From the NCBI GenBank assembly GCA_000990585.1, contig LBQD01000003.1:15504-79503 (forward strand): a stretch of DNA of 64,000 nt. Reading direction: 5' to 3'. Below the pieces are notes generated by a model. It was not told the DNA's origin, did no database searches, and was given only the letters and a program-made list of their open reading frames with translations. Origin of the DNA: Candidatus Moranbacteria bacterium GW2011_GWE2_35_2-. Its GTDB lineage: Bacteria > Patescibacteriota > Minisyncoccia > Moranbacterales > UBA9337. Shown in pieces: positions 1 to 29,236 of this stretch. Both the position numbers and the translations under genes were made by a program. Numbering within the stretch: position 1 is the stretch's first letter; each line of letters opens with the position of its first letter.

Positions 1-1722
1 GACAGCGACGGCAATTCATCCATTGACGCCATTGCCTTTATTTCCGCCCGAGCAAGCTCAACATCTTTCACTGTCCAAGCCCGCGACGGAGCAAATCCGG
101 TCGCCGTTACCAACGACCAGGACTGGCAAATCTTCCGCGCTTACACCACGCTGGACAACGCCGAAGGCGGAGCGGAAAACACCGCCAACATTGACGACGA
201 TGTGGATGATTTTGACATCTCCGTCAGCCGAAATGACGGAAAAGATATTTACGCCAGCAACGAACAATGGAACATCGCGGCGTATGCGAATGGAACAACG
301 GCGGATACGAACGCGGTGACGATTGATAGTTGGACAACTTATCCGACTAATTATATCAAAATTTATACTCCGGTTTCGAGTTCTGAAGTTGGGACTAGCC
401 AGAGGCATAACGGGGTTTGGGACGATGGGAAGTATAAAATGGAAATTACCGGGAATTCTTCAGCAATAAATGCGGTATCTGGAAATGTTTGGGTTGACGG
501 TCTTCAGATAAAAAGAATGACATCATCATCGTTTGGAACTATTTATGGTATAACTAATTCTGGTGTTTTTAAAGTAAATAATAATATTATTAATCTTATT
601 GATAATTATACTAATACAACCAGGGCTATAAATAATGGCGCAAGCAATTTAAATTCTTATTATTGGAATAATATAATTTATGGAACTAATTTGGACTATG
701 GATATTATCAAGCATCTGCCTATGGATATTTATATAATAATTCCGTTATAGATGCGAATAATGGTTATTACAGTTCATTTTCCAATAAAATGACAGTAAA
801 AAATAATATTGCACAAGGAGGAGCCGACGGATTTTTCGCATCAAGCAGTTTATTTGGAGCAGGATCAGACTATAACGTATCTGATTTTGCCAACGACGCG
901 CCGTCGCCTTCGTATCGCACAAATCTGGCAACCGATGTCTCCTTTGTTGACGAAACTAATGAAGATTTTCATTTATCGTCATCTGATACTTTCGCCTGCG
1001 ATGCCGGGGTGAATTTGTGGGATGATTCTGCTTTGCCGATTCGAGAGGATATTGATGGTGATCCTCGATCGGAGCAAGGCGGATGGGACATCGGGGCGGA
1101 TGAGTTGATTACGTATCAAAGTAATGTTTCGGGACTCGGAACAGCGACAATGCAGATGTCACTCACGGAAAAAATGACAGATGGACTGGTGGGAATGTGG
1201 AGCTTTGACGGTCCCGATATATCGGGAACCACTGCCTACGATCGAAGCCCCGCCGGAGGAAACGACGGAACCATTACCGGAGCCACCCCCGCCATCGGTA
1301 AAAGAGGACAAGCACTTTCATTTAATGGAACGACGGATTTTGTGGATGCGGGAGATGTTGGCGCAGGAATACAAACTATTTCTTTTTGGATGAAAACTGA
1401 TGATGCGACTGACATAAAAATTTTGAATATAGACGGAACGGATCAAATTGAAATTGATGGAACGGGTAATATTTTGGCGACTAGCTTTCCATCTGCCACA
1501 ATTTATGTTGACGGCTCGGTTTCCGCGGCGGTCGACACTTCTTGGCATTTTGTAACCATCACTGATTCAACAGGCGTGAGTGCTTCCACTTTTCAAATCG
1601 GACAAGTTGCATCATCTTTCTTTGATGGAATAATTGATGAAGTTCGCATTTACAATCGAGTATTGAGTGTAGATGAAATTGGTAGATTGTATGATTTGGG
1701 GAATGTGGAATATGTGAGATGA
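1..1722 (+). CDS. Surface protein, 5'-partial: right-handed parallel beta-helix module followed by a LamG-like (concanavalin A-like lectin) jellyroll domain
   Basis: Frame 1 is open from base 1; the track ORF at 202 is an internal Met. The translation DSDGNSSIDAIAFISARASSTSFTVQARDG... duplicates module D of the 2390-7606 protein. It has NN-rich beta-helix rungs (YGYLYNNSVIDANNGYY) and FVDETNEDFHLSSSDT ... WDIGADE. The C-terminal half, LVGMWSFDGPDISGTTAYDRSPAGGNDGTITG...ALSFNGTTDFVDAGD...IDEVRIYNRVLSVDEI, is a classic LamG_3 signature. Confidence 0.8.
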   Translation, partial: DSDGNSSIDAIAFISARASSTSFTVQARDGANPVAVTNDQDWQIFRAYTTLDNAEGGAENTANIDDDVDDFDISVSRNDGKDIYASNEQWNIAAYANGTTADTNAVTIDSWTTYPTNYIKIYTPVSSSEVGTSQRHNGVWDDGKYKMEITGNSSAINAVSGNVWVDGLQIKRMTSSSFGTIYGITNSGVFKVNNNIINLIDNYTNTTRAINNGASNLNSYYWNNIIYGTNLDYGYYQASAYGYLYNNSVIDANNGYYSSFSNKMTVKNNIAQGGADGFFASSSLFGAGSDYNVSDFANDAPSPSYRTNLATDVSFVDETNEDFHLSSSDTFACDAGVNLWDDSALPIREDIDGDPRSEQGGWDIGADELITYQSNVSGLGTATMQMSLTEKMTDGLVGMWSFDGPDISGTTAYDRSPAGGNDGTITGATPAIGKRGQALSFNGTTDFVDAGDVGAGIQTISFWMKTDDATDIKILNIDGTDQIEIDGTGNILATSFPSATIYVDGSVSAAVDTSWHFVTITDSTGVSASTFQIGQVASSFFDGIIDEVRIYNRVLSVDEIGRLYDLGNVEYVR

Positions 1723-1978
1723 ATTTTAAATTGCACAAATTTTAAATTTTCAAACAATTCCGATAGGGTTGTGTGAATACGAGGGATTTAGGAGTTGTGA
1801 TGAGCGGGTGGGGAGAGTAGCTCAAATGACAAATTTCTAATTTCCAATGACAAATCAAAATAACAAAAAAAGATTTTTTATCAATGAGGGAGATGTGGTA
1901 AAATGGAGGAGTGGTGAGGTTTGGAGAGTAATATAAATTTTCAATTTCTAATTTTCAATTTTCAAACAATTTTAAATT

Positions 1979-2353
1979 TTGGAATTTATGAATTATAATC
2001 TGGAAGAAAGAACTAGGATTTTTAGCAAAGAAATAATTAGATTTTTGGTGAAAATAAAAAAGAATAGGATTAATGAAAACATCATTTCTCAATTAATAAG
2101 ATCCGCAACTAGCGTGGGTGCTAATTATTGCGAAGCCAACGGAGCCAGTTCAAAGAAAGATTTTAGCAATAAAATATTTATATGTCGCAAAGAAATACAA
2201 GAAACAAAATACTGGGTTGAACTCTTAGCCGAAGCCAGTCCGGAAGAAAAAGATAATTTGAAAAAACTTTGGAAAGAAGCTCATGAGTTGACATTAATTT
2301 TCAATAAAATTTCTAAAACATTAAAAGAAAAAAATTTGAAATTAAAAAATTAA
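1979..2353 (+). CDS. Four-helix-bundle protein of the 23S rRNA intervening-sequence (IVS) family
   Basis: QLIRSATSVGANYCEANGASSKKDFSNKIFICRKEIQETKYWVELL matches the conserved core of the IVS-encoded four-helix-bundle family (SxGANxAEA ... KDF ... KEakETkYWLeLL). The gene is flanked by inverted AT-rich repeats (1941-1978 and 2366-2393). Confidence 0.75.
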   Translation: MEFMNYNLEERTRIFSKEIIRFLVKIKKNRINENIISQLIRSATSVGANYCEANGASSKKDFSNKIFICRKEIQETKYWVELLAEASPEEKDNLKKLWKEAHELTLIFNKISKTLKEKNLKLKN

Positions 2354-2389
2354 ATCATTGAAAATTGTTTAGAAATTTAAAATTGAAAA

Positions 2390-5300
2390 TTGAAAATTAA
2401 AAACGCAATGCCAAAACTAAAACTTACAATATTATTCCTAGCCTTCATATTTCTTCCGACCATCGCTCATGGGGCGACTGAATTTATCTCCGTCATCGAT
2501 CCTGACAATGGTTCTGGAACAGATTACACTTCTCTTTCTGCTTGGGAAGCGGCGAATCAAGTTGATTTAACTGCGGCGACTACTTTGGTGATTGCCGGAA
2601 GTTTGACGCGTGGAACGATTGCTGATGGGACTCCGATAACCCAGACCACCTCGGGAGCCACGGCGGTTTGCGTCCATCACACTGAAACGCAAATGCTCAT
2701 CTCTACTCTTAGTGGAACTCCCAATGCCACCGACACTTGGTTTCCGACCGTTGATGGAAGCGACGCAACCAATGCTTGGACTCCGACCGATGCCGGCGAC
2801 AGTGCTATTGCGATTGCCAAATGCCGATCTACTTCTGGAACTGCCGACACAACTGCCGTTACCGTTGACGGTTGGACAACTTCCGCCGACAATTACATCA
2901 AAATCTGGACCGACCCAAGCGAGAATTATCGGCATCAGGGGAAGTGGGATGAGGGGAAGTATCGGCTGGAAGTTCCTCAGATATCCGGCGGAGGTAGTGG
3001 AATTAGAATTTTGGAAGAATATGTTTGGATTGATGGTTTACAAATCAAAAGAGTTATAACAACCGAGGCGGGGCAAGCCTGTGTCGCCGTAGGTGGGGCT
3101 TCTGGTGAAATTAAAATTTCTAATAATGTGTGTGAAATCAAAAATAACACTACATATTATGAATATGGTATTTATAAATATACACTATCTTCATCGGCAA
3201 CTTATAAAATTTGGAACAATGTAATATACGGAGTTGTAGATACTGACAATAATTCTGGAAGCGGAATGTATTTGGCAGCTGTAAGTCCTGTAGCAGAGAA
3301 TACTTATGTATATAACAATACAGTGGTTGGCTCATATTATGGAATTGCAAAAAGTGGTGGTACATGTATTTCCAAAAACAATATCGCCTACAACAACACC
3401 ATCGACTATTCCGGTACATTTGATTCATCCTCAACCAACAATCTTTCTAAAGACGCAACCGCTCCGCCATATAATACATATTATACCAACACCAGCGTTA
3501 TTTTCGCCGACGAAACCAATCAAGACTTTCATCTTGATTCCGCCGATACCGCCGCTCGCAATCAAGGCGCGATTCTTTACGACTCCGGCGATGATGCCAA
3601 TTTGAATTTTACAACCGACATCGACAACAATGCCCGCTTGGATAGCGCGGGGACTTGGGATATTGGGGCGGATGAGGGGATTACGAAAGTTTACCGCAGT
3701 GTCGGACCATCTGCCACGGCCGCCATCGCTACCGGTGCGACCTATGGCAATGTGGAAGTGAAGCCGGTGTATGTTTCCGGCTCAACCACTAACATCGCAG
3801 ATTATGTGGCGACTTTTTGGTCTGATTTGCCGATTAATGTCGGAGTAGGCGACGCTTTGCAATATGACGATGACGACGACGGAGATATTGACGCGTCCGA
3901 TTCTATTGTTTTTATCACCAAAAGAATTGATGCCTCGCATTTCAGCGTCCGCACCGCCAGCGGAACCGCGCCCGCCAGCACTCTTGCGCCGGATTCGAAT
4001 TGGTCAATTTTTCGCTCATACACTTCGCTTTTCAATGCCGAAGCCGGAGATGAGAATGATTCCATTGATGACGATTTGGAAGCGTTTGAAAGCTGGAGCG
4101 GAGGAAAAGATCTGCAAACAAGCCAGGAGCAATGGAATATCGCGGCGTATGCCGGACAAGGTGGCGTGGCAGATACGGTGGCGGTGGCTATTGATGGTTG
4201 GACGACGACAGCGGATTCATATATCAAAGTTTATACTCCGACTAGGAGCGATGAGGTTGGGGTGAGCCAGCGGCATAGTGGAGTATGGGATGCGACAAAA
4301 TACAATTTGTCGACGGGGACGGGAGTAGCTTCGGTGGATCTGAGGGAGAATTATACGGTTTTTGACGGTTTACAGATAACAAATTCCGGCACCGCCTCAA
4401 CGGATAATGATATTCTTGTTGCGGGATATATTAGCTTTACGAATGTGAAAAATTCCATCATTAAGGGTGGATATAATGGAATATATCATAGTGTGAGCAA
4501 TATTATTTATGGTGGAAATAAATTTTACGGAAATATTATTTATGAGACATATTATTCCGGGATAAGGATATATTTATCAGGCGCCACCCCATTGTCTTCG
4601 TATGTATATAATAATACCGTGTACAATTGCAATGCCAGTAATACAGCATGGAGAGGCGGAATAGAAACATTGAATGCTGATGTTGTCAAAAACAATATCT
4701 CAATGGAAAATGGAAATTTGGATTTTGTGAATGCCAATGGTCAATCCTACAACATATCCTCCGATGCAACTGCTGTCGGTACCGGAAGCCTTGCTAGTCA
4801 AACTCTTTCTAATATCGCTTTTGTTTCCACCACAAGCGGTATTGGCACCGACCTTTCCAACGACCCATACATACCATTCAATACCGACATTGATTCCGCT
4901 TGCTTGCGAAAAGATAAGCAATCAAGAGTATCCAATGGCGGGGATGATTCTTGCTACACAAGACCCAAAGGAACAAACTGGGATATCGGTGCGCATGAGC
5001 TTATTACGAAAATTTACCGAAGCGTCGCGCCGGATGCGGACGGGACTTTGGAAGCGCTCACCACCGGTGCAAGCAACGCAATGACTATCGCCAGCTCAAC
5101 CGCCACTTTCGCCACTGCTTTGGCGGACAACATCGGCGTGGGCGACGCTATTCAATATGACGCTGACGGCGACGGAGATATTGATGCGTCCGATTCCATC
5201 GTTTTCATTTCCGGCCGAACGGACAGCACCCACTTCACCGTCAAAACCGCCAGCGGAACCGTTCCAACCGCCGTTTCCGCCGACACGGATTGGAGCCTTT

Positions 5301-7606
5301 TTCGCGCCTACACCAGCCTTGCCAACGCCGAAACCGGAACGGAAAATTTGGCAATTGACGCGGATTTGCGGAATTTTGACACTGGCAACCGCGACCTTGC
5401 TTCAAACAGCGAGCAATGGAATATTGCGTGCTATGCTAATGGGACGACGGCGGATACGGTTGAGGTGACGATTAGCGGCTGGACAACTGCGGCGCAGAAT
5501 TATATCAAAATTTATACTCCGTATTTATCGATTGAAGTCGGAACGAGCCAGAGGCATCAAGGGGTTTGGGATGAAGAGAAGTACATCCATTTAAATGAAA
5601 TCAATAGCACGGCTGTTTCTAATACACGGATTGACGGTTTACAGATATATAGATCCGGTGATGACGGGGGTTATTACGTGCGTGGAATAAATTCCGGTCC
5701 GAAAGCGGAGATTAGTAATAATATTATTAAAGCCAACTTAACCGGTTCTCAGGTTCATATCGGTATTTCTGAAGGGTATGCCGGCGTGAATAAAATATTT
5801 AATAATATTATTTATGATTTTAATGGTAATGCTGGAAATGAGTATGGAATTTATATTACCGGTGGAACGAATTATGTATATAATAATACAATATATAACT
5901 GTGAATATGGTATAAGTCAACAATATAGTGGTACGATTTTAGTAGCTAAAAATAATATTATAAAAGGTTCTGGTAATGTCAATGCTTATGTTGGAACTTT
6001 TACTAATTCTGATTACAACGCCACGGATGGAACAGATGTGGGTGATGGAGGAGTGCATAGCAAGATTTCCCAAACATTTTCTTTTGTTGATGAAGCCAAT
6101 GATGATTTCCATCTCTCCCCATCCGACACCGCTGCCCGCAACTCCGGCGCGGATCTTTCTCAGGATTATAATTTGCCGATTATATCCGATATTGACGGAC
6201 ATACACGACCCGCCTCCGCCATAGGCTCTGGCGTGGCGATGGACATCGGCGCCGATGAATCCGCCACTCCGATTTACCGCTCCATCGCTCCCAGTATGTC
6301 AACTTATCTTGACCGCGGAGTGGATGAATCTGGAACCGACCTTTCCATCTCCGGCACGACAATGACTTTGGAAAACGCCGCTCCGGACAACGTGGGCGTG
6401 GGCGACGTTATCCAATATGACAGCGACGGCAATTCATCCATTGATGCCATTGCTTTTATTTCCGCCCGAGCAAGCTCAACATCTTTCACTGTTCAAGCCC
6501 GCGACGGCTCACAACCGGTTGCCGTGACCAACGATCAGGATTGGCAAATCTTCCGCGCCTACACCACGCTGGACAACGCCGAAGGCGGAGCGGAAAACAC
6601 CGCCAACATCGACGACGATGTGGACGATTTTGACATCTCAGTCAGCCGAGCCGACGGCAAAGATATCTACGCCAGCAACGAACAATGGAACATCGCGGCG
6701 TATGCGAATGGAACAACGGCGGATACAGCGGCGGTGACGATTAGCGGTTGGACAACTTATCCGACGAATTATATCAAAATTTATACTCCGGTTTCAGCGA
6801 GTGAAGTCGGGGTGAGTCAGAGGCATGAGGGGAAGTGGGATGATGGGAAGTATAATATGGTAGTAAATAATAATACGGCTTTTACAAATCAAGAAGATTT
6901 CTTCAGAGTTGATGGATTGCAAGTGGAGGTAATAAATCCTTCAGCTAACAGTCAGAATTGTTTGAACTTTACAGGACTAACAACAGGAGGAAAAATATAT
7001 GTCAGCAATAATATTCTGCGAGGTCATTCATCCGAAACTTATAATCAAAGAGGAATTTTTTATTATAGTACTATGCAAAGTGTAGATTTTTATATTTATA
7101 ATAATATCGTATATGATTTCTTGAATAATTCATCAAGTTATGGTTTTTATTTAGGAGGAACTATTAGTAATTGGTATGTATATAATAATACAGTCTATAA
7201 TTGTTATTATGGCCTTCTTGCTTTAGCAGGGGCGGATCCTTACTATTTTAATAATATTGTTCAAAATTGTACGGATGGATTCGGTTCTACGAGAGATGCT
7301 TCTTCTGATTTCAATATTTCCAATACATCTCAAGCAGACGCTGATTCAGTTAATGCCACCTTCAACGGATATAAAACAGTTTCCTTTATTGATGAATTTA
7401 ATGACAATTTCCACCTTGCTTCATATGATACGGCGGCGAAGGGGAATGGGGTGGATTTGTCGGGCGACAGCTACCTACCGTTTTCAACTGACGTCGACGG
7501 AGACACTCGCGTTCGTTGGGACATCGGCGCCGATGAATTCGGAGCGACCCAATCAATAAAATTCCGCGGAGATGTGAAAACGAGAGGGGATGTGAAGATA
7601 CGGTGA
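2390..7606 (+). CDS. Giant secreted surface protein (1738 aa) made of four tandem ~430-aa right-handed beta-helix (pectate-lyase-like/PbH1) modules
   Basis: Signal peptide MKIKNAMPKLKLTILFLAFIFLPTIAHG. There are four repeats of [WNIAAYA..ADT.AVTI.GWTT...NYIKIYTP...SQRH.G.WD..KY — NN-rich beta-helix rungs YVYNNT.YNC — DFHL.S.DTAA.N.G — WDIGA.E — IYRS.AP]. The DFHL...DIGAxE ending is typical of Beta_helix (PF13229-type) domains. Confidence 0.85.
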   Translation: MKIKNAMPKLKLTILFLAFIFLPTIAHGATEFISVIDPDNGSGTDYTSLSAWEAANQVDLTAATTLVIAGSLTRGTIADGTPITQTTSGATAVCVHHTETQMLISTLSGTPNATDTWFPTVDGSDATNAWTPTDAGDSAIAIAKCRSTSGTADTTAVTVDGWTTSADNYIKIWTDPSENYRHQGKWDEGKYRLEVPQISGGGSGIRILEEYVWIDGLQIKRVITTEAGQACVAVGGASGEIKISNNVCEIKNNTTYYEYGIYKYTLSSSATYKIWNNVIYGVVDTDNNSGSGMYLAAVSPVAENTYVYNNTVVGSYYGIAKSGGTCISKNNIAYNNTIDYSGTFDSSSTNNLSKDATAPPYNTYYTNTSVIFADETNQDFHLDSADTAARNQGAILYDSGDDANLNFTTDIDNNARLDSAGTWDIGADEGITKVYRSVGPSATAAIATGATYGNVEVKPVYVSGSTTNIADYVATFWSDLPINVGVGDALQYDDDDDGDIDASDSIVFITKRIDASHFSVRTASGTAPASTLAPDSNWSIFRSYTSLFNAEAGDENDSIDDDLEAFESWSGGKDLQTSQEQWNIAAYAGQGGVADTVAVAIDGWTTTADSYIKVYTPTRSDEVGVSQRHSGVWDATKYNLSTGTGVASVDLRENYTVFDGLQITNSGTASTDNDILVAGYISFTNVKNSIIKGGYNGIYHSVSNIIYGGNKFYGNIIYETYYSGIRIYLSGATPLSSYVYNNTVYNCNASNTAWRGGIETLNADVVKNNISMENGNLDFVNANGQSYNISSDATAVGTGSLASQTLSNIAFVSTTSGIGTDLSNDPYIPFNTDIDSACLRKDKQSRVSNGGDDSCYTRPKGTNWDIGAHELITKIYRSVAPDADGTLEALTTGASNAMTIASSTATFATALADNIGVGDAIQYDADGDGDIDASDSIVFISGRTDSTHFTVKTASGTVPTAVSADTDWSLFRAYTSLANAETGTENLAIDADLRNFDTGNRDLASNSEQWNIACYANGTTADTVEVTISGWTTAAQNYIKIYTPYLSIEVGTSQRHQGVWDEEKYIHLNEINSTAVSNTRIDGLQIYRSGDDGGYYVRGINSGPKAEISNNIIKANLTGSQVHIGISEGYAGVNKIFNNIIYDFNGNAGNEYGIYITGGTNYVYNNTIYNCEYGISQQYSGTILVAKNNIIKGSGNVNAYVGTFTNSDYNATDGTDVGDGGVHSKISQTFSFVDEANDDFHLSPSDTAARNSGADLSQDYNLPIISDIDGHTRPASAIGSGVAMDIGADESATPIYRSIAPSMSTYLDRGVDESGTDLSISGTTMTLENAAPDNVGVGDVIQYDSDGNSSIDAIAFISARASSTSFTVQARDGSQPVAVTNDQDWQIFRAYTTLDNAEGGAENTANIDDDVDDFDISVSRADGKDIYASNEQWNIAAYANGTTADTAAVTISGWTTYPTNYIKIYTPVSASEVGVSQRHEGKWDDGKYNMVVNNNTAFTNQEDFFRVDGLQVEVINPSANSQNCLNFTGLTTGGKIYVSNNILRGHSSETYNQRGIFYYSTMQSVDFYIYNNIVYDFLNNSSSYGFYLGGTISNWYVYNNTVYNCYYGLLALAGADPYYFNNIVQNCTDGFGSTRDASSDFNISNTSQADADSVNATFNGYKTVSFIDEFNDNFHLASYDTAAKGNGVDLSGDSYLPFSTDVDGDTRVRWDIGADEFGATQSIKFRGDVKTRGDVKIR

Positions 7607-7731
7607 TTAGGGTGCAGTGATTATGAGCGGATGGGGAGAGTAGTTCCAATGACAAATCAAATCAAAAATCCAAATGACGAAATATAGCAATCGGCTTGAT
7701 TTTTAGCGTATTTTATGCTAATATATTAGAT

Positions 7732-8034
7732 ATGAATAGCTTGAAGATCAAAGTTAATAAGTTGTTTTGGTTTTTAGGAAAGGGCGGGGATTTTTCCAAA
7801 GATCGACATTTGATTATCCATCAAACGCTGGCTTTGGGATCGATGCAGGACGTACAAAGACTTTTTCGGGAATACGGACAAGAGAGCATAACGCATGAAT
7901 TTCAAAAACCAGTTTCGGGTCTTTACACTCCCGCAGTGTTTCATTTTTTTGAGCATATCTTGGGTGTTGAAATAAAAAATAGCGGGCGATATATTAAAAA
8001 TATACATGGAAAAACTTCATTTAGACATTCTTGA
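7732..8034 (+). CDS. Small protein translationally coupled to the AbiEii-like nucleotidyltransferase; putative cognate antitoxin or partner
   Basis: ~100-aa ORF whose 3' end overlaps the start of the downstream NTase gene by 29 nt, an arrangement typical of toxin–antitoxin pairs. No recognisable motif. The alternative start 7696 is further upstream. Confidence 0.35.
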   Translation: MNSLKIKVNKLFWFLGKGGDFSKDRHLIIHQTLALGSMQDVQRLFREYGQESITHEFQKPVSGLYTPAVFHFFEHILGVEIKNSGRYIKNIHGKTSFRHS

Positions 8035-8653
8035 TCAAGAGAGAAAGAATATTTTCCAAAAACTTTCCGCTTTCCGATCAATCGGATATTTGTCAGGCGG
8101 AACAGCTTTGGCGTTGCAACTGGGACACCGGGTGTCATATGATTTTGATATTTTTTGCGCCAAAGAAATTCCAGCGATGTTCGCTGCTAAAGTTCAAAAA
8201 GAAATAGTTGTCCGTCAAGTGCTGGTGAATAATAGTGATGAATTTACATTTCTTACCGACCACGACATTAAAGTGTCTTTTATTTTCTATCCTTTTGATT
8301 TGAAAAAATACGTGTTTGAATTTCCAGACGTTCCTATGGAATTAATTTCCCCACTGGGTATTGCGATTACAAAGGCTTATGCGCTAAACAGGCGGAATGC
8401 TTGGCGTGATTATGTTGATTTGTATGTAATTTTGAAAAAAGAAATCACGACTCTGGAAAATATTGTCAATGCGGCTCGCATTGCGTATGGGGAATTGTTT
8501 AATGAAAAGCTTTTTTTATCGCAACTATTATACACGCAAGATATTTCAAAGGCGGAAATAGAGAATACGCAAATGCTTGAATCAGCGACGCTTTTTGAAG
8601 TTGTGTCTTTTTTTGAAAAAGAAGTCAAAGCATATTGGGAAAGAAAGCTGTAA
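8006..8653 (+). CDS. AbiEii/DUF1814-type nucleotidyltransferase (type IV TA / abortive-infection toxin family)
   Basis: GYLSGGTALALQLGHRVSYDFDIF matches the GGTAL...R.S.D.D motif of the AbiEii nucleotidyltransferase fold. Size is 215 aa. Confidence 0.6.
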   Translation: MEKLHLDILDQERKNIFQKLSAFRSIGYLSGGTALALQLGHRVSYDFDIFCAKEIPAMFAAKVQKEIVVRQVLVNNSDEFTFLTDHDIKVSFIFYPFDLKKYVFEFPDVPMELISPLGIAITKAYALNRRNAWRDYVDLYVILKKEITTLENIVNAARIAYGELFNEKLFLSQLLYTQDISKAEIENTQMLESATLFEVVSFFEKEVKAYWERKL

Positions 8654-8656
8654 TAA

Positions 8657-8757
8657 TAGCTGGCTCGGAATCGGAAATGAAACTTCCGATGTCAATTCTG
8701 ACGGAGTTGTGAATACGAGGGATTTGGGAATAATGATGAGCGGATGGGGAGAGTAGC
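8657..8757 (+). pseudogene. Orphan 3'-end fragment of a beta-helix/dockerin surface-protein gene
   Basis: ctggctcggaatcggaaatgaaacttccgatgtcaatt(c/t)(c/t)gacggagttgtgaatacgagggatttggg... is near-identical to 18703-18808 (the C-terminus of the 17319-18809 protein, ...LGIGNETSDVNSDGVVNTRDLG.MMSGW). Here it sits directly after the unrelated NTase gene. Confidence 0.8.
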
Positions 8758-8783
8758 TTATTTAAATGACAAATTTCCAATTA

Positions 8784-8925
8784 ACCCCCTCCCCTTTGAA
8801 GGGGAGGGTTGGGGAGGGGTTAGAAACTATGGATAACCAAAAATCCAAACAATTATGAAAAAACCTCAGAAACAAAGAAAGTTTCACACCTCCCCCAACC
8901 CCTCCTCCCGAGGAGGGGAGGAAAG
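8784..8925. repeat. Two GC-rich palindromic / G-quadruplex-type elements in an AT-rich intergenic region
   Basis: 8784-8821 CCCCCTCCCCtttgaaGGGGAGGGttGGGGAGGGG is a perfect hairpin and contains four G-runs (G4 A G3 TT G4 A G4). 8888-8922 cctcccccaacccctcctcccgaggaggggagg is a C-rich mirror of it, giving a G4 motif on the minus strand plus a hairpin. Confidence 0.6.
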
Positions 8926-8993
8926 CTAGTTGGAAACTATTGTGATATAATTTGTTTGTTGGATGTAAATAAAAAAATAATAGTAAAAATATT

Positions 8994-9665: not shown

Positions 9666-12263
9666 ATGGAAATAAAGGTAAATACGGGCTCCGGAATAAA
9701 AAAAAACGATGAATATTTGGAAAGAACCAGAATTGAAAAATTTGCTCCTTCTGCGGAAAGCAAAACGGAACGGGTTTTTGCTTCAAAAATCGAACCTAAG
9801 CGAAATGCTTTTGTTTCGGAAATAAAAAAGGAAGTTAGCGGAAAAGAAAAGAAAGGCTTCCTTCATTTTTTTGGCAACATATCCGACAAAATTATCGGAC
9901 TGAGTATTTTTATGATTTTTTTCGGAGTGCCATTATTTTTTACCGGAATTACTTTTCAGGGAATATCATTTGAAAAACAAATTTATTTTTATCTTTGGTT
10001 GTTGGTTGGATTGGTGGCATGGTTGGCAAAAAGCATTAAAACCGGTGAGATGAGAATTCGCAAAACTCCATTGGATATTCCTATTTTTTTGTTTTGGGGT
10101 GCCTATCTCGCTTCGCTGGCTTTTTCCGTCGACCACTGGCACAGCTTTTTTGGATTTTTCGGAGATCCGTCAAGAGGATTTTTGAATGTGACGGCTTTTG
10201 TGGTGGCGTATTATTTCTTTTTCTCCCATATTGAAAAAGAAAGAATAAAATTGGCATTGGGGGCGATTGTTGCGAGCGGAACACTGGTGTCGGCTTGGAC
10301 GATTGTTCGCTTGTTGAATCTGCAAATTATCCCACAAGTTGTTTTAGAAAATTCTCCCGCAAGTTTGTTGGGATCTTTTTCGGGACTGAATATTTTTTTG
10401 GGAGTTTTTGTTCTTTTGTCCGTTGGCGCTATTTTGAAAATTGTTTCTTTGGAAAAATTGTCTAGCACAAAGAAAATAGTAACAATAATTTTTCTTTTTA
10501 TAGCTCTTTTTTTCGGTGCGGCAGCTTTTGTTTTAGTGCAAAGTTTTGCTTTTTGGCCGGCAATCTTGATTGGGAGTGGAATTTTTTCTTTATATGCTTT
10601 TTCTCGGGTAATAAAAATGCCTTTTCATTGGATTTGGCTTCCAATGGCGGTTTTCGTTTTTTTTATGGCAATTTTTATGGTGGGAGACAGAAATCTGAAT
10701 TTGTCGCGCGTGAGTTTGCCGGCGGAAGTGAGTCTCTCTTACGGATTATCATGGGATATTATCAAGGAAGGGATGAAAGAGAGTGTTATTTCCGGATCGG
10801 GACCGGCGACATATGGATACGCTTTTTCAAAATTCAAACCGCAAGATTTCAATCTAAATCAATTTTACGACTTGCGTTTCTATCAAGGTTCCGGGTTATT
10901 GTTTGAATCGGTTCCGACGATTGGAATTTTGGGAACAGTCTTTTTGTTTTTGTTGGTTTTTTCCTATCTGAGTGTTTCTGTCTATTTGATTTCACGGGAA
11001 AAGGATAAGGAAAAAACATTATCTTTATCGTTTTTTTCCGCTTCCGTTATTTTGATTTTGGGAATATTTATTTCTAAGGCTTCCGGTCCGATTGTTTTAC
11101 TTGGATTTTTAGTATCGGCAATGGCATTACTTTCAATTATTTTGGAAAGTGAGGCGCAGGCTAATTATTTTGATTTGTCGCTCAAAGCTTCTCCGAAATA
11201 TGCACTTTCTTTGGCTTTTGTTTTTGTAGTGCTCAGCAGTGCAATTGTTTTTTCTTTTGTTTTTTTGGGCAAAGTGTTTGCCAGTGACGCATTGGCAGGG
11301 ATAGCAATTAAGGAAAGCCGTGAGGATAGGGAAAAAGCGGTGGAGAAAATGCAACGAGCAATTGCGCTTAATCCGAAAGAGGGAAGATATTATACTCGTT
11401 TAGGACAGGAATATTTGATTTTAACCAATGAGCAAGCAATCGGAAAAGATGCGAAAAATAATACAGAGAAGATCAAAAAATATTTAAGTAATTCCATTCT
11501 TCTTTTGAACAAAGGAAAGGAATTGATGAATAATGATTTGAACGCAGTCGAAGGTTTGGCGCAGGCGTATGAAAATGCAGGACTCTATGTTTTTGAATCG
11601 AACAAAAAAGCATTGGAAAATTATGAAAGAGCTGCCGAGCTTGATCCGAATAATCCGAATTTACAGGTCAAGATTGGAAAGGTGCGGATGACTCTTTCCG
11701 GCGCTATGGAAGATAATGATGAGAAAAAGGCGTATATGGAAGATACTAAAAAAGTCTTGGAAAAATCCGTAGAACTGAAAAAGAACTTTGCTGACGGATA
11801 TTATAATTTGGCATTGGCTCAGGAGCAGATGGGATCGCTAGATTCTTCGGTTGCAAATATGGAAAAAGCTGCGACGCTCAGTCCTTCTAATGTGAATGTG
11901 TTTTTCAATTTGGGAAGATTATATCAAAAGCGTTCCGGCGAAGAAGATTTGAAAAAAGCGGAAGCTATTTTCAAAAAGATATTGGAAATAAACAAGGATG
12001 ATGTTAATACCAATTTTAGTCTCGGGCTTTTGTTCGAAAAAACCAACCGCAAAAATGAAGCGATTGAGCAATATCGAAAAGTCATTGCCCTAATTGAAAG
12101 CGGACAGCAAAATGAAATTGCGAAGAAAAATATTGAGCAAATAAACGCAATGATTTCAAATATTCAAAAAGGACAAAACAACAATGTTCAGCAAGTAGAG
12201 GAAAATGTTCTAGAAAATCAAGAACAAAAAATTCCAGAAGTTGAGGTTATCGAAGGGGAATAG
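9666..12263 (+). CDS. Polytopic membrane protein with an O-antigen ligase/polymerase-like (Wzy_C) core and a C-terminal TPR repeat domain
   Basis: About 12 transmembrane segments are followed by TPR-like repeats (ALNPKEGRYYTRLGQEYL, AAELDPNNPNLQVKIGKV, ATLSPSNVNVFFNLGRLYQK). This architecture is common in CPR genomes. Confidence 0.6.
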   Translation: MEIKVNTGSGIKKNDEYLERTRIEKFAPSAESKTERVFASKIEPKRNAFVSEIKKEVSGKEKKGFLHFFGNISDKIIGLSIFMIFFGVPLFFTGITFQGISFEKQIYFYLWLLVGLVAWLAKSIKTGEMRIRKTPLDIPIFLFWGAYLASLAFSVDHWHSFFGFFGDPSRGFLNVTAFVVAYYFFFSHIEKERIKLALGAIVASGTLVSAWTIVRLLNLQIIPQVVLENSPASLLGSFSGLNIFLGVFVLLSVGAILKIVSLEKLSSTKKIVTIIFLFIALFFGAAAFVLVQSFAFWPAILIGSGIFSLYAFSRVIKMPFHWIWLPMAVFVFFMAIFMVGDRNLNLSRVSLPAEVSLSYGLSWDIIKEGMKESVISGSGPATYGYAFSKFKPQDFNLNQFYDLRFYQGSGLLFESVPTIGILGTVFLFLLVFSYLSVSVYLISREKDKEKTLSLSFFSASVILILGIFISKASGPIVLLGFLVSAMALLSIILESEAQANYFDLSLKASPKYALSLAFVFVVLSSAIVFSFVFLGKVFASDALAGIAIKESREDREKAVEKMQRAIALNPKEGRYYTRLGQEYLILTNEQAIGKDAKNNTEKIKKYLSNSILLLNKGKELMNNDLNAVEGLAQAYENAGLYVFESNKKALENYERAAELDPNNPNLQVKIGKVRMTLSGAMEDNDEKKAYMEDTKKVLEKSVELKKNFADGYYNLALAQEQMGSLDSSVANMEKAATLSPSNVNVFFNLGRLYQKRSGEEDLKKAEAIFKKILEINKDDVNTNFSLGLLFEKTNRKNEAIEQYRKVIALIESGQQNEIAKKNIEQINAMISNIQKGQNNNVQQVEENVLENQEQKIPEVEVIEGE

Positions 12264-16905: not shown

Positions 16906-18809
16906 ATGAATATAATAATTTTACTAAAACATAAGCTAAGTATATTTTTAGTTAGTTGTATATTTATTTATTTGGGATCGGTAGGTGTGTCGGCTGCCAG
17001 TTTTCCTGTTCTATTATTTTCCGATCTCACCGACGCTCCTGTTTCCGGCTGGGAAGGTTCGCCAACCAAAGGAGCAGCCATATCCATTTGGGGAAGAAAT
17101 CTTGGAACAGAAAGAGGTTCTTCCTATGTAACCATAGGAGGAGTCAATCTTACCAATGACAGTGATTATGCCGAATGGGGAGCGACAACTAACCCAACAA
17201 CTGCCAGCGGACAACAAAGAATAACTTTCTGGCTCAATTCTTCACTTTTTACACAAGAAATACTGGAAATATTTATTTTGTCAGTACGACAGGGAATGAT
17301 TCAAATGACGGGCTTAGTGTGGCGAGTGCTTGGACCACTTTTGGAAAGGCTCGTGAAACTGTTGTTGCAGGAGATGTTGTGTATTTTAAATCTGGAATAT
17401 GGACAGCTTATGATCATGGTTCAACGTGGGCCAATGCTGTGCTCTATTTTAGGACAACTTCCGGTGTTTCTAATCATAACAACGGGACATTAAATAATAG
17501 TATTGCTTTTTCTTCGTATCCCGGAGAGGTTGCGCAAATGTGTAATGGAAATAATGCCGATGGCGGAAATGCAACCAGTGGTTTTTATCGACATGGTGAT
17601 AGCGTGCAAGATCGCCTTGAATACTGGACCTTATCGAAGTTTAAAGTTGTAGCGTGGCATTATGGTTTCAAGTGGTCAAATATAGATTTAACCTATGATA
17701 ATAATCTTCGTATAATCGGTTGGGATGCCACAACAACCATTCCAAGAACGGATATAAATACCCCGGAATCTATTGGCGGACAAATAATGTCGCAAAACGG
17801 AGATCAGGATGATATTTATATTCTCGGAAATTATATGCACCATTCCGGATTGTCTTCAGAAGAAGATGAAGATAATTTTGGTTATAAAGTTCAATCAATA
17901 TATATTAGCGGATTTAACGGACAATATTCAAATATACATATAGGACATAATGATTTTGCTCATAACAGCGGAAATTTGCAGGTTTATGCGCACAATTCTT
18001 CTGATATTATTGATGATATTTATATTTATGATAATTGGTTTCATGATGGCGGAACAACGGGAATGGTTTTAAATGGCGGTGATGGATTAACTGAATATTC
18101 TTTTATTACGACGGCTTATGTTTATAATAATATTTTTTCAAATAATCTTAGTTATGCTGCCAAATTAACTGATGGGTCGACAGGAAGCCATGGGGGCACA
18201 TTTTATTTTTATAATAATACATGCTACAACAATAGTGATGCGGAAATTTTTAGTCCCAATCCTGCGGCATTGTATGTTGTAAATAATATCTTTCAAACAT
18301 CGGCGTTGGTTTATTTTTCTTATTCTCCGGGAGATGATTCTGGAAATTTTGGTTCTCATAATCTTTTTTATGGTTCTGTTGGTGCTATTCCAAGCTGGTC
18401 AACTAATAATATTATTATTAACCCTCTTTTCACCTCTCCTTCCACTAATGATTTCACTCTCCAATCAACTTCCCCCGCTATCAATGCAGGCACAACCCTC
18501 GCTTCGGTTCCCAACGACTTTCTCGGAGTCTCCCGTCCCCAAGGGATATCCTATGACATCGGAGCTTTTGAATATGTTAGCGCAGCCGAAGAAACCTGCA
18601 CCGACAACATCCAAAACCAAGACGAAACTGGAATCGATTGCGGAGGAGTATGTGAGGCTTGCGTCGTTCCGATAACTTATGGATTAAGCAACTTCATCTC
18701 CGCCATCACCAACTGGCTCGGAATCGGAAATGAAACTTCCGATGTCAATTCCGACGGAGTTGTGAATACGAGGGATTTGGGGGTGATGATGAGTGGGTGG
18801 TCAAATTAA
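16906..18809 (+). pseudogene. Secreted right-handed beta-helix protein with a Cys-rich motif and a dockerin-like C-terminal tail, interrupted by a -1 frameshift at a T5 tract
   Basis: A signal peptide ORF (16906-) in frame 1 runs into junk after ~17250. Frame 3 opens at 17193 and continues NTGNIYFVSTTGNDSNDGLSVASAWTTFGKARETVVAGDVVYF (a typical beta-helix N-cap) to ...SRPQGISYDIGAFEY...CTDNIQNQDETGIDCGGVCEAC...DVNSDGVVNTRDLGVMMSGWSN. Inserting one T at 17246-17250 restores a single ORF. Confidence 0.75.
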
Positions 18810-18826: not shown

Positions 18827-19711
18827 ATGAGTTTTTGGCAATTTTATCAAAATCTACCGCAATATATCGATCCGATTGCTTTTTCAATCGGTTTATTTGA
18901 AGTTCGGTGGTACTCTCTTTTATACATACTAGGAATAGCTGTTACTTATTGGGTTTTATTGATATTGATTAGAAGTATGAAAAATAAAATCTTAAAATTT
19001 CCAATTTCCAACTTTCAATTATCAAATGATCAATTTCAAAATTTGTTTTTGTATATTTTAAGCGGTATCTTGTTGGGAGGAAGATTTGGGTATGTTCTTT
19101 TTTATAATTTTTCATATTATTTTCACAATCCGCTGGAAATATTTTTACCTATTAATATTACTGGTTATGGATTGCGGTTTACCGGATTTTTTGGCATGAG
19201 TTATTTCGGGGCTTTGCTGGGTGCGGTATTGGCGGGCTATATTTTTTCAAAAAAATACAAAATTGATTTTTGGAATTTGGCGGATTTTATTTCTGTGGCA
19301 GTTCCAGTCGGATATTTTTTTGGCAGAGTCGGCAATTTTTTAAACGGCGAATTATATGGAAGAATTACGTCAGTTCCCTGGGGGATGTATTTTCCGGCGG
19401 GCGGAAATGTTTTGCGCCATCCATCGCAATTATATGAAGCGTTTTTTGAAGGCGTGGTTTTGTTTTTTATTATTATTTTGTTGCGAAATATGTTCCGCAA
19501 TCAATTACGGAAATATTATTTTTATGGAATATTATTTTTAATCTATATTTTCAGTTATGCTTTTTTTCGTTTCTTTTTGGAATTTTTTCGCAATCCGGAT
19601 GCACAAATCGGATTATTTTTTAACCGAATAAGCTTGGGACAAATATTGGCTTTTGTAGTAATGATACTTGCGCTTGTCATTTGGCAGAAGAAAAAAAACG
19701 TGGTAAGGTAA
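18827..19711 (+). CDS. lgt: Prolipoprotein diacylglyceryl transferase
   Basis: Lgt signature GRVGNFLNGELYGR plus the conserved membrane topology. Confidence 0.9.
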   Translation: MSFWQFYQNLPQYIDPIAFSIGLFEVRWYSLLYILGIAVTYWVLLILIRSMKNKILKFPISNFQLSNDQFQNLFLYILSGILLGGRFGYVLFYNFSYYFHNPLEIFLPINITGYGLRFTGFFGMSYFGALLGAVLAGYIFSKKYKIDFWNLADFISVAVPVGYFFGRVGNFLNGELYGRITSVPWGMYFPAGGNVLRHPSQLYEAFFEGVVLFFIIILLRNMFRNQLRKYYFYGILFLIYIFSYAFFRFFLEFFRNPDAQIGLFFNRISLGQILAFVVMILALVIWQKKKNVVR

Positions 19712-20205: not shown

Positions 20206-20582
20206 GGATATTGCTAGTAAATAATTTGTTTGATTATTTAAAAGCCTTCGCAAAATTGAAATTTAAAACTCGGGATTGTCTGAAAAATACATCCCTTGGC
20301 ACAAAATAATCATTGTGCTTATGGATGTGTTTTTTGTTCGTAAATATTCGAGCGAAATTCAAGAACTTTGACAATTGAATCCTAGTTAATAAAACTAGCG
20401 TAAATAATCGCAATTTTTTGCGGTTAGTCCTTTGGCACGCCAAAGCTTCTTTGAAGCGTAGGCGGCCTATATCCGCCGTTGCTCTTATGAGCTATGGCGT
20501 GACGAAGTTAGAGTCTATTCAAAACTAAAGAATTTATTTTCTTTTTTATACGAATGAATAAGTATTTATACTTGTCATTCTT

Positions 20583-22123
<1,541 letters not shown>

Positions 22124-22136
<13 letters not shown>

Positions 22137-22432
22137 TAGGGAGATTTTGATAGAATTCTAGAGCATTACACATAAAGGCATACTAATTTCAAGTTAGTTG
22201 CTGTGGAATGTGGATTTTATCTGCTGGTCGTAACTTATGGATTTATCCGTAAGTAACAGCAACGGCAAAGCCAAGCCAAATAAAAATGGTAGTCGTATGT
22301 TTGTACAAGCATATGCATTGATTCAGTAATGAATCTCTCAAATAGGCTTCTAACCTAGGACTGACCGCAAAAGATTTTGATATTTACGAAAACTTTATTC
22401 TAAAACACCCGCAAGGGTGTTTTTTGTGTGGA
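22124..22432 (+). ncRNA. Structured 16S 3'-trailer element ending in a rho-independent terminator (copy 1 of 2)
   Basis: Conserved core cagcaacggcaaagccaagccaaataaaaatggtagtcgtatgtttgtacaagcatatgca plus GATTCA-GTAA-TGAATC hairpin, ending in the terminator aacacccGCAAgggtgttttttg. A second copy lies at 28937-29236. Confidence 0.55.
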
Positions 22433-28936: not shown

Positions 28937-29236
28937 ATCACCTCCTTTCTAGGGAGATTTTGATACTAACTGAGAGTATCACACACAAAAGTCGCTTTGA
29001 TTCAAATTAAAGCGATGTGGGGTATAGTTAGTATCCGCTGGTCGTAATGTGGAATTTATTCTGCATAACAGCAACGGCAAAGCCAAGCCAAATAAAAATG
29101 GTAGTCGTATGTTTGTACAAGCATATGCAGTTGATTCAGCAATGAATCGCTCGGATAGACTCTTATAGGACTAATCGCAATAGGTTGTGATAACATATAC
29201 TTTTTGCAAAGAACACCTTAAATGGTGTTTTTTGCG
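28937..29236 (+). ncRNA. Second copy of the 16S 3'-trailer structured element, without a 16S gene
   Basis: atcacctcctttctagggagattttgata, then a variable ~60 nt, then the near-identical core cagcaacggcaaagccaagccaaataaaaatggtagtcgtatgtttgtacaagcatatgcagttgattcaGCAAtgaatc. It ends in the terminator aacaccTTAAATggtgttttttg. Confidence 0.55.

Follow-up and report, generated by a model that had tools for sequence, protein, structure and literature searches.

The locus studied here raises the question of why one sequence of about 100 bases recurs at four places at or behind gene ends when only one of its copies is translated. We call this sequence the tail T, the short motif that follows some of its copies M, and the whole 64 kb stretch of Moranbacteria DNA that was analysed the window. 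The sequence-only reading of this DNA regarded the element as conserved beyond its coding function, and proposed that it was a recombination target, a conserved 3'-UTR or terminator element, or a sign of frameshifting between dockerin-plus and dockerin-minus gene forms. We found no description of T or M in the literature. Our analysis shows that T is the end of a surface-protein domain and suggests that its untranslated copies are probably gene-end leftovers in a repeatedly rearranged locus, with no new functional element involved.

T forms the 3' coding end of a dockerin-like domain with which surface proteins of Moranbacteria (CPR, groundwater) terminate. The domain spans about 40 aa and has the form NFISAITNWL..DVNSDGVVNTRDLGxMMSxW, followed by 1-4 aa and a stop. 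A DNA scan with degenerate codons over species-representative genomes gave 46 T matches, spread over 34 stretches of about 17 Patescibacteria genome assemblies; nearly all of the matches terminate long open reading frames with the W, 1-4 further residues and the stop. The profile built from 21 tails matches dockerin structures (6kg9_A, E = 2e-7; 1daq, E = 1e-5), with whose loops the tails align, and 18 of the 21 tails match PF00404 at E <= 1 (best 3.9e-5), which bears out the earlier description of these codons as dockerin-like. The calcium-binding loop DxNxDGxxNxxD and the helix behind it are found in the tail as DVNSDGVVNTRD and LGVMMSGW, respectively, and the residues N26, D28, N32, D35 and L36 are invariant across the 21 tails.

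The type I dockerins (PF00404) of cellulosomal proteins likewise place this loop and helix at the extreme C-terminus of secreted proteins. In contrast to their tandem pair of loop-helix segments, each about 22 residues long, the tail has a single segment that takes up about 20 of its ~40 aa, and the host belongs to a Patescibacteria lineage. The tail profile matches either segment of real dockerins, and the Pfam alignment of the tails is limited to profile positions 19-52 of 57. Both gene C (16.6 bits) and its isolated tail (21.3 bits) score below the Pfam gathering cut-off of 22.9 bits. Just upstream of its tail, at residues 375-419, gene C matches the choice-of-anchor Q family (NF041518) with 51.3 bits, against an NCBIfam cut-off of 25 bits that gene B (20 bits) and the L041 protein (19.4 bits) do not reach; genes A and B match this model weakly or not at all. 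The choice-of-anchor family is named for the different C-terminal anchor signals of different proteins, and the exchange of one tail between N-terminal parts that are otherwise unrelated would agree with this naming. The anchor here is a half-dockerin and differs from known sorting signals such as PEP-CTERM, LPXTG and the T9SS signal.

Table 1. Features of the tail-bearing locus (coordinates in the window)
Feature	Position	Strand	Description
Gene A, 3' part	1..1722	+	Open frame from base 1; TGA at 1720-1722; extends past the left end of the window
Tail copy A (relic)	1756..1820	+	NSDRVV, insertion of 2 nt, then NTRDLGVVMSGWGE and stop; untranslated
M, double motif	1824..1855	+	AAATGACAAATTTCTAATTTCCAATGACAAAT; two AATGACAAAT copies 21 nt apart
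Relic of a second gene-end type	1895..1931	+	gtaaaatggaggagtggtgaggtttggagagtaa; homologous to gene ends in ...VKMEYTGGAVRFGE and stop
Four-helix-bundle cassette	1933..2400	+	Left arm U 1933-1987, AT-rich; gene 1988-2353 (Pfam 23S_rRNA_IVP); right arm D 2354-2400, reverse complement of U
Gene B	2408..7606	+	Secreted, 1732 aa, four modules of ~425 aa each; ends within copy B
Tail copy B	7560..7643	+	Degenerate 5' part 7560-7622; internal duplication
Second half of M and a further repeat	7644..7683	+	TTCCAATGACAAAT, then CCAAATGACGAAAT repeat; follows copy B
Toxin-antitoxin module	7732..8653	+	DUF6922 antitoxin 7732-8034; AbiEii toxin 8006-8653
Orphan tail copy	8660..8756	+	Frame WLGIGNETSDVNSDGVVNTRDLGIMMSGWGE and stop intact; no gene upstream
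First half of M	8764..8782	+	AAATGACAAATTTCCAATT; cut off by inserted element
DUF559 (Vsr-like endonuclease) element derivative	8783..8929	+	Internally deleted; GC-rich hairpin ends
Tail copy C	18690..18809	+	C-terminus of gene C, in frame: ...NFISAITNWLGIGNETSDVNSDGVVNTRDLGVMMSGWSN and stop

All four tail copies lie where the sequence-only reading had placed them, and the frames and stops agree with its account of a translated copy C, a gene B that stops in a degenerate tail and an untranslated copy A (Table 1). The 21-mer ATGAGCGGRTGGGGAGAGTAG, which forms the end of T, has three matches in the window (at 1800, 7623 and 8736) and none in shuffled sequence. Copy C is the only translated copy in the window; its in-frame translation ends in ...DVNSDGVVNTRDLGVMMSGWSN and a stop, and the lgt gene begins behind it at 18827. 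Since copy C has neither a GWGE end nor AATGACAAAT or M, the combination of tail and downstream motif is common to three loci and not to four. Copy A, placed past the TGA of gene A, is damaged by the 2-nt insertion (gtgTGaat) and by in-frame stops, and the bases before it (1740-1755) resemble the left arm U of the four-helix-bundle cassette. Gene B terminates in GDVKTRGDVKIR and a stop within the degenerate, internally duplicated part of copy B; the MSGWGE end of this copy is in another frame, behind three stops, and the orphan has exactly the 3' 21-mer of copy B (7623-7643). The orphan tail begins 7 nt past the AbiEii toxin stop.

The surroundings of these copies combine surface-protein genes with small inserted genes. 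Gene A, which ends in a LamG domain (Laminin_G_3 match), and gene B are recent surface-protein paralogs: over 300 nt, positions 1-300 match 6419-6718 with 93% identity. Two different gene-end relics are stacked behind gene A, the second of which has homologs in the end of gene A' of strain L001 and the end of an 874-aa LamG gene in L046. The four-helix-bundle gene matches PF05635 and TIGR02436. Homologous genes in other genomes are flanked by the same U and D arms without M, and four-helix-bundle genes occur by the thousand, scattered beside housekeeping genes. The toxin-antitoxin module separates copy B from the orphan, and both its left junction with 7644-7683 and its junction with the orphan tail are common to the window and L065. 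Homologs of this module with 77-82% identity follow EF-G, GlmS, PurD and PfkB genes with neither T nor M, which excludes it as a cassette dependent on them. The DUF559 element derivative forms a long hairpin (z = -3.55).

The tail sequences are stable across samples. Bar one base and an N gap in L010, 10 independent assemblies agree throughout copy B and the orphan, and copy A is identical in L002, L003, L049 and L054; the sequences are thus not assembly artefacts. Copy A is missing from strain L001, where a DUF559 element stands in place of copy A, M and the four-helix-bundle gene. Differences between strains are segment replacements and not changes of frame.

Within the window the T copies are mosaic, with a common breakpoint near ATGATG/AGCGG. 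Copy B has about 54% identity to the other copies in its 5' part versus 21/21 in its 3' part (Fisher test, p = 3e-5), while the orphan and copy C are 91% identical in the 5' part and at only 14/21 positions in the 3' part. In other genomes, T copies of the same genome are identical or nearly so (LSNR, 3 x 100%; JAGGSH, 2 x 100%; DAOWDU, 97%). A comparison of the window with L065 gives a difference of 4% for the antitoxin gene (8% at its third codon positions) and of 2% for the toxin 3' end, as against 19% for the first 73 nt and 54% for the last 24 nt of the orphan tail that abuts the toxin. Altogether, the mosaic copies, the within-genome identity and a divergence faster than that of adjacent genes point to gene conversion or homologous recombination among paralogs as the process at work.

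These comparisons also bear on the proposed conservation beyond coding function, to which they lend little. T and M are 90% identical between the window and JALNYX01, the nearest other species, and the adjacent four-helix-bundle gene and start of gene B are 89% identical, so T and M are conserved no better than the DNA beside them; the orphan tail, as described above, even outpaces its neighbours in divergence. A different picture comes from the orphan tail with M: in four lineages (the window, L046, L061 and L065), the pair precedes the same gene of 189 aa. Here the window and L046 share 84.5% identity, as compared to only 54% at third codon positions of the neighbouring gene, and pure neutral decay since their divergence would predict less identity in the orphan tail and M. 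We explain this excess by conversion from intact paralogs, although constraint on the DNA itself could also produce it.

M is a separate intergenic repeat of a narrow clade and is independent of T. Exact AATGACAAAT occurs four times in 64 kb (at 1825, 1846, 7648 and 8765), each time no more than 30 nt past a ATGAGCGGRTGGGGAGAGTAG site; with one mismatch allowed there are 27 matches versus 19 expected, which is no enrichment. M has a fixed position, 4-9 nt past the stop codon. The same double motif was seen in L012, L041, L046, L061 and L065, whereas most T-bearing genes of other genomes are not followed by M. Public scans found the exact motif only in the window population, JALNYX01, L061 and L065, and M had no matches in viral contigs. 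Absence of the downstream motif from other genomes, which would have spoken against the sequence-only reading, is thus not what the scans show, but the motif recurs in a narrow clade only. The metagenome scan gave four genuine loci; the Rifle contigs bearing copy B and the orphan lie outside it, and it therefore gives no copy numbers. The more distant CAZRJL01 genome retains a single CAATGACA in the orthologous spacer.

Several arrangements separate M from a complete tail. It occurs apart from T after AbiEii in L041 and after a gene ending in GGAVRFGE in L001. In L041, L046 and L065, the last 21 nt of T together with M form a fusion with the first 25 nt of the four-helix-bundle gene, and in L012 they follow an ATPase gene; such recurrence as a unit in odd places could reflect active spread of the unit. 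Inverted M is present in L001, L046 and L061 and absent from the window, L012 and L065. In the three former, M and inverted M bracket 80-550 nt, and L061 has a perfect 18-nt inverted repeat. Two contexts show M broken by the DUF559 element at one and the same base, with the derivative in the window and the full-length element in strain L001. Other assignments of M were rejected. A small ORF starting from GGAGAG and ATG ACA AAT (MTN...) is not conserved in length (MTNF in copy A, 12 aa in copy B, 30 aa in the orphan), and the metagenome pattern mostly matched ribosome-binding-site and start contexts of this kind in unrelated genomes. M is not a part of the four-helix-bundle cassette, as the U/D-arm cassettes of other genomes lack it, nor the promoter of that gene, as the promoter scan was empty at M.

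The bracketing of short segments by M and inverted M suggests a more active alternative, in which the last 21 nt of T and M form a recombination module, either a MITE-like or homing-associated terminal inverted repeat or a cassette-exchange site. Such a module would insert just past the stop of surface-protein genes ending in (F/W)GE and bring a replacement gene end and cargo. It would also account for the several regularly spaced AATGAC sub-repeats in M, the interruption by the DUF559 element at one base, the presence of M behind two unrelated gene ends that both close with GE, and the cargo found between copies of M or of the 21-mer with M, which is a toxin-antitoxin module in the window and L041 and a DUF4143 ATPase in L012. 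However, the junctions read showed no target-site duplication, the 10 neighbouring window genes scanned include no transposase or recombinase, and the exact motif is confined to a few close relatives with none in viral contigs. The toxin-antitoxin homologs and four-helix-bundle cassettes that occur elsewhere without M, and the lack of inverted M in the window itself, weigh in the same direction, and we judge both the module and its mode of insertion unlikely. Its most specific form is a unit of about 60 nt (ATGAGCGGRTGGGGAGAGTAG, 4-9 nt and AAATGACAAATTTCCAATTTCCAATGACAAAT) that forms the end of a small, as yet undescribed Moranbacteria element, mobile or homing-associated, and swaps gene 3'-end cassettes; we consider such an element quite unlikely, as we do its insertion past the stop of (F/W)GE genes with a substitute gene end and flanked toxin-antitoxin, DUF4143 ATPase and DUF559 cargo. 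An att/attC-type site agrees poorly with the absence of an integrase or recombinase among the neighbours and with repeat boundaries that differ between left and right copies. Thus the recombination target of the sequence-only reading is supported in part, as a passive process: the mosaics, the common breakpoint, the concerted evolution and the stacked relics are circumstantial signs of recombination, but no recombinase, defined site or other dedicated machinery was found, and the toxin-antitoxin module does without tail or motif elsewhere. To our knowledge, the exchange of accessory genes by CPR genomes is barely understood, which would give the mobile-element reading additional interest.

The other alternatives have less in their favour. 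If the T end and M served surface-protein genes as a 3'-UTR element, such as a terminator, an RNA stability element or a regulatory binding site, this would agree with the fixed distance of M from the stop codon, with the 21-nt spacing of AATGACAAAT copies (about two helical turns) and with the CAATGACA that persists in CAZRJL01. Yet T and M contain no terminator-like site (hairpin and T-run), fold no better than shuffled sequence (z = -0.34) and match no Rfam family; three window copies follow no intact gene, and M is missing behind most T-bearing genes elsewhere, so that the 3'-UTR or terminator proposal fails these comparisons and is markedly improbable. Switching of the dockerin-like tail by programmed frameshifting, readthrough or phase variation has only a very slight chance of being correct. 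Copy A does lie in the frame of gene A beyond its TGA, but to express it would take readthrough of the TGA and a frameshift and would then meet still more stops, and the tail frame of copy B contains three stops besides the duplication. There is no slippery or homopolymer tract, and the identity of the sequences in up to 10 assemblies from different samples, together with strain differences by segment replacement, leads us to reject this toggling. We attach next to no probability to a diversity-generating retroelement with the orphan as template repeat, the gene C tail as variable repeat and the four-helix-bundle protein as Avd-like accessory factor. This idea draws on the Avd-like gene nearby, the location of the repeat at the C-terminus of surface proteins and the ~88 nt common to the orphan and gene C, where 4 of 6 differences are A in the orphan versus G in gene C. 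All six differences are transitions, and with two C/T changes among them they are not restricted to adenines; the scan of the 10 neighbouring genes revealed no reverse transcriptase, and the scatter of four-helix-bundle genes beside housekeeping genes does not suit an accessory factor.

We therefore return to the reading of the untranslated copies as gene-end leftovers. In this model, the T domain belongs to a family of secreted surface proteins found in Moranbacteria and related Patescibacteria, and the window represents a hypervariable array of T-bearing surface-protein genes, interleaved with small selfish genes (23S_rRNA_IVP cassettes, the DUF6922/AbiEii module and the DUF559 element). Gene ends in the array may have been repeatedly displaced, truncated or overwritten through duplication, deletion, insertion and gene conversion among paralogs, and copies A and B and the orphan would be the non-functional remains of these events. 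The similarity of the relics would then stem from their recency and from conversion by intact paralogs, with no function of their own. M would originally have been located just past the stop of the subfamily ending in GWGE and have been copied together with the last 21 nt of T.

Comparable arrangements are known from other systems. Like surface-protein loci in which silent or partial gene cassettes take part in gene conversion, for example pilE/pilS of Neisseria, the window has promoterless partial copies of surface genes near expressed paralogs, with mosaic structure and signs of conversion. In contrast to such loci, a conserved domain takes the place of the variable epitope, the damage to two of the three copies is too great for them to act as donors, and strains show no switching. 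M resembles REP/BIME sequences and MITEs in being short and intergenic, in its location just past stops, in its direct and inverted orientations and in the long stem that these allow. It differs from them in its apparently very low copy number, its narrow clade and the lack of any target-site duplication or associated transposase in the sequences seen.

If the leftover reading is correct, secreted proteins of Moranbacteria and related CPR bacteria would commonly end in a strongly conserved half-dockerin tail. CPR bacteria are thought to live attached to hosts, and their surface proteins matter for this reason. The loci of T-bearing genes would be reshuffled by recombination and invaded by small selfish genes, and the stacked gene-end relics that result can mislead annotation. 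It would also follow that similarity among untranslated copies need not imply function where intact paralogs overwrite them.

The tail of about 100 nt, read and aligned at each site, is present at all four positions in the window, namely past the end of gene A (1-1722, cut by the window edge), at the ends of genes B (2408-7606) and C, and as an orphan behind a toxin gene. Its 21-mer ATGAGCGGRTGGGGAGAGTAG occurs at 1800, 7623 and 8736 and has no match in shuffled sequence, and a repeat search of the window gave the same families (D7, D8, D12). The recurrence described in the sequence-only reading was thus confirmed, and its account of frames and stops agrees with our three-frame translation, which in copy B places MSGWGE and its stop in another frame, beyond three stops. 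The exact motif AATGACAAAT is found only four times in the 64-kb window (1825, 1846, 7648 and 8765), each time after a ATGAGCGGRTGGGGAGAGTAG 21-mer. Since copy C ends in two other codons and lacks a downstream AATGACAAAT, the tail alone is common to four loci, and the tail plus downstream motif to three rather than the four proposed. Genes A and B both consist of modules of ~1.27-1.3 kb and are recent paralogs (positions 1-300 and 6419-6718 are 93% identical).

Features of the tail loci in the window and in compared loci
Feature	Position	Description
Interval after gene A		In order: left-cassette-arm-like fragment; tail relic A and downstream motif; relic of another gene end; four-helix-bundle cassette; gene B
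Copy A	1756-1820	3' of the gene A TGA; 2-nt insertion (gtgTGaat) and in-frame stops (three-frame translation)
Relic of another gene end	1895-1931	Homologous to ...VKMEYTGGAVRFGE-stop of L001 and L046
Copy B	7560-7643	Gene B stop at 7606 lies within a degenerate, internally duplicated tail (GDVKTRGDVKIR-stop; three-frame translation)
Orphan	8660-8756	Frame intact-looking; begins 7 nt past the AbiEii toxin gene stop
DUF559 element	8783-8929	Same element as the full-length one of strain L001, gene interior deleted; MITE-like
Copy C	18690-18809	Translated, ...NFISAITNWLGIGNETSDVNSDGVVNTRDLGVMMSGWSN-stop (three-frame translation)
DUF6922/AbiEii module, window		Between copies of the downstream motif or of tail end plus motif
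Different AbiE module, L041		Between copies of the downstream motif or of tail end plus motif
DUF4143 ATPase, L012		Between copies of the downstream motif or of tail end plus motif

Public contigs that encode the TPR protein of the window (9666-12263) number 23 and come from Rifle-type groundwater metagenomes and the NCBI assemblies GCA_000989265.1 and GCA_000992055.1. Copy B and the orphan were the same as in the window in 10 of 10 loci fetched, except for one base and an N gap in one of them (L010), and copy A was the same in four loci (L002, L003, L049 and L054). These identities indicate that the tail copies are real sequences; the heterogeneity at stop codons suggested earlier as a check was absent among the assemblies compared. 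The differing strain L001 departs from the window by whole segments. Within gene C, one site (window 17244; ~17560-17640 in L001, L002 and L003) varies among four assemblies through indels of 62, 13 and 27 nt, which reflect either strain heterogeneity or an assembly join. The gene is continuous in L002 and L003 (654 or 645 aa), but in L001 and the window it is split or frameshifted. At 4839/4840 in gene B, ~42 nt that the window lacks are present in each of L001, L002 and L003.

A degenerate-codon pattern for NTRDLGxxMSxW, searched in one genome per species, yielded 46 hits, which fall in 34 stretches belonging to ~17 genome assemblies of Moraniibacteriota, Parcubacteria and relatives. Nearly all lie at the extreme end of long ORFs, with 1-4 residues between the W and the stop, and the tail consensus is xTYxLSNFISxxxNWLxxGxxxSDVNxDGxVNTRDLGIMMSxW. 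A profile from 21 tails hits dockerin modules of known structure (6kg9_A, E = 2e-7; 1daq_A, E = 1e-5), and 18 of the 21 tails match Pfam Dockerin_1, mostly under its cut-off. Dockerins have two Ca-binding segments, with either of which the tail profile aligns, so that the tail resembles one half. From the ORF-end placement, the consensus and the dockerin matches, we conclude that the tail is a genuine conserved C-terminal domain, like half a dockerin, in CPR surface proteins. Immediately 5' of it, gene C encodes a choice-of-anchor Q domain. Tail-bearing MAGs labeled ‘Bdellovibrionales’ (loci L013, L019, L023, L033 and L045; CAZSCV01, CAZRJL01) share 81% nucleotide identity and synteny with the window (tail, then lgt), and the tail on a ‘Berkelbacteria’ contig (L011, VMGN01) is 100% identical to a CAZSCV01 copy; these taxonomic labels look wrong.

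The downstream motif is a double repeat, AAATGACAAATTTC(C/T)AATTTCCAATGACAAAT, which among the tail-bearing genes found follows only genes ending in ...SGWGE-stop of one related species, JALNYX01, whose orthologous genes are 75-89% identical to those of the window. Two copies there are in frame (L029, L041), and hence an intact ancestral form exists, consisting of gene, tail, GWGE-stop and motif. A metagenome search for GGGGAGARTAG, N1-10 and AATGACAAAT returned 19 loci, most of them in unrelated genomes where a ribosome-binding site happens to precede an ATG start; the four genuine ones comprise L061, L065 and two instances of the window population's copy A. The motif also stands after an AbiEii stop, with no tail, in L041, and after another gene end (...GGAVRFGE-stop) in strain L001. 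It is independent of the tail, a separate intergenic repeat of a narrow clade. Membership in the four-helix-bundle cassette was rejected, as homologous cassettes elsewhere share the AT-rich inverted arms without the motif. Searches turned up neither a terminator-like site nor a significant fold, and neither an Rfam family nor a match in viral contigs, leaving the proposed 3'-UTR or terminator role unsupported.

The locus has a mosaic layout. Strain L001 has, in the interval after gene A, the GGAVRFGE-stop gene end, half the motif, a full-length DUF559 (Vsr-like endonuclease) element with GC-rich hairpin or inverted-repeat ends (2158-2600), an inverted motif and gene B'. At several loci in JALNYX01 and in L065, a composite joins four pieces: the left cassette arm, the opening 25 nt of the four-helix-bundle gene, ~27 nt from the 3' end of the tail, and the motif. 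In L012, another compared locus, the four-helix-bundle gene is deleted and only the start of a gene-B-like gene remains, fused to a tail piece. L065 also carries, at 1141-1290, an AbiEii toxin gene with a large internal deletion beside an intact DUF6922 antitoxin, and its toxin-antitoxin module is therefore decaying.

The four-helix-bundle (23S_rRNA_IVP) gene of the cassette at 1933-2400 has over 4000 close homologs across Patescibacteria, the best 120 at 70-98% protein identity and many on ~1 kb contigs or amid housekeeping genes. Each such gene compared (the window copy and L066-L076) lies between two arms, the downstream one being the reverse complement of the upstream one, in the manner of a terminal inverted repeat or long RNA stem. 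An AT-rich insertion of ~130 nt (21615-21750) in the 16S rRNA gene (20580-22135) consists of these inverted arms (aattttcaatt... / ...gaaattagaaatt) with no gene within, and resembles an empty intervening-sequence hairpin. Just past this rRNA gene lies the first copy of an exact 64-nt direct repeat (22254-22317 and 29066-29129, 6.8 kb apart).

Copy B and the orphan are 54% identical over the first ~63 nt and agree throughout the last 21 nt (21/21; Fisher p = 3e-5), whereas the orphan and copy C are 91% identical in the 5' part and match at 14/21 in the 3' part; both contrasts point to a breakpoint near ATGATG|AGCGG. Paralogous tails within other genomes are also nearly uniform (LSNR, three at 100%; JAGGSH, two at 100%; DAOWDU, 97%), which is concerted evolution. 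The recombination idea of the sequence-only reading holds in part, as a passive process, with mosaic copies and a shared breakpoint. It is unlikely that the toxin-antitoxin module has a dedicated insertion site: homologs of the module at 77-82% identity follow EF-G, GlmS, PurD or PfkB genes without tail or motif. Between the window and L065, which share the toxin|tail junction, divergence is 4% in the antitoxin gene (third positions 8%) and 2% at the toxin 3' end, as against 19% over the first 73 nt and 54% over the last 24 nt of the adjoining orphan tail, which thus appears to have been overwritten rather than preserved. Against JALNYX01, identity is 90% for tail plus motif and 89% for the adjoining four-helix-bundle gene and the start of gene B, so the extra conservation earlier ascribed to the element is not seen. 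In the window and in L046, L061 and L065 alike, an orphan tail and motif precede the same 189-aa gene, and between the window and L046 they are 84.5% identical, compared with 54% for third codon positions of that gene. This excess runs counter to the other comparisons; conversion from intact paralogs accounts for it, though constraint on the DNA may play a part.

Frameshift toggling between tail-plus and tail-minus forms is ruled out, because the lesions are too many and the assemblies show no variation. A retroelement reading was likewise rejected: the ~88 nt shared by the orphan and copy C show 6 differences, all transitions, two of them C/T, and no reverse transcriptase is encoded among the neighbouring genes. 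The downstream motif is possibly a mobile element, given its inverted copies 80-550 nt downstream in three loci (L061, L046 and L001; a stem of ~19 bp could form) and the DUF559 elements of the window and L001, which interrupt AATGACAAAT at the same base; against this, neither a target duplication nor a transposase was seen, and copies are very few. The untranslated tails are probably gene-end relics in a recombination-prone locus rich in selfish genes, and their recent origin and gene conversion would account for their similarity. Dockerin-like anchor, gene-end relics and extragenic repeat are each of an already known kind.
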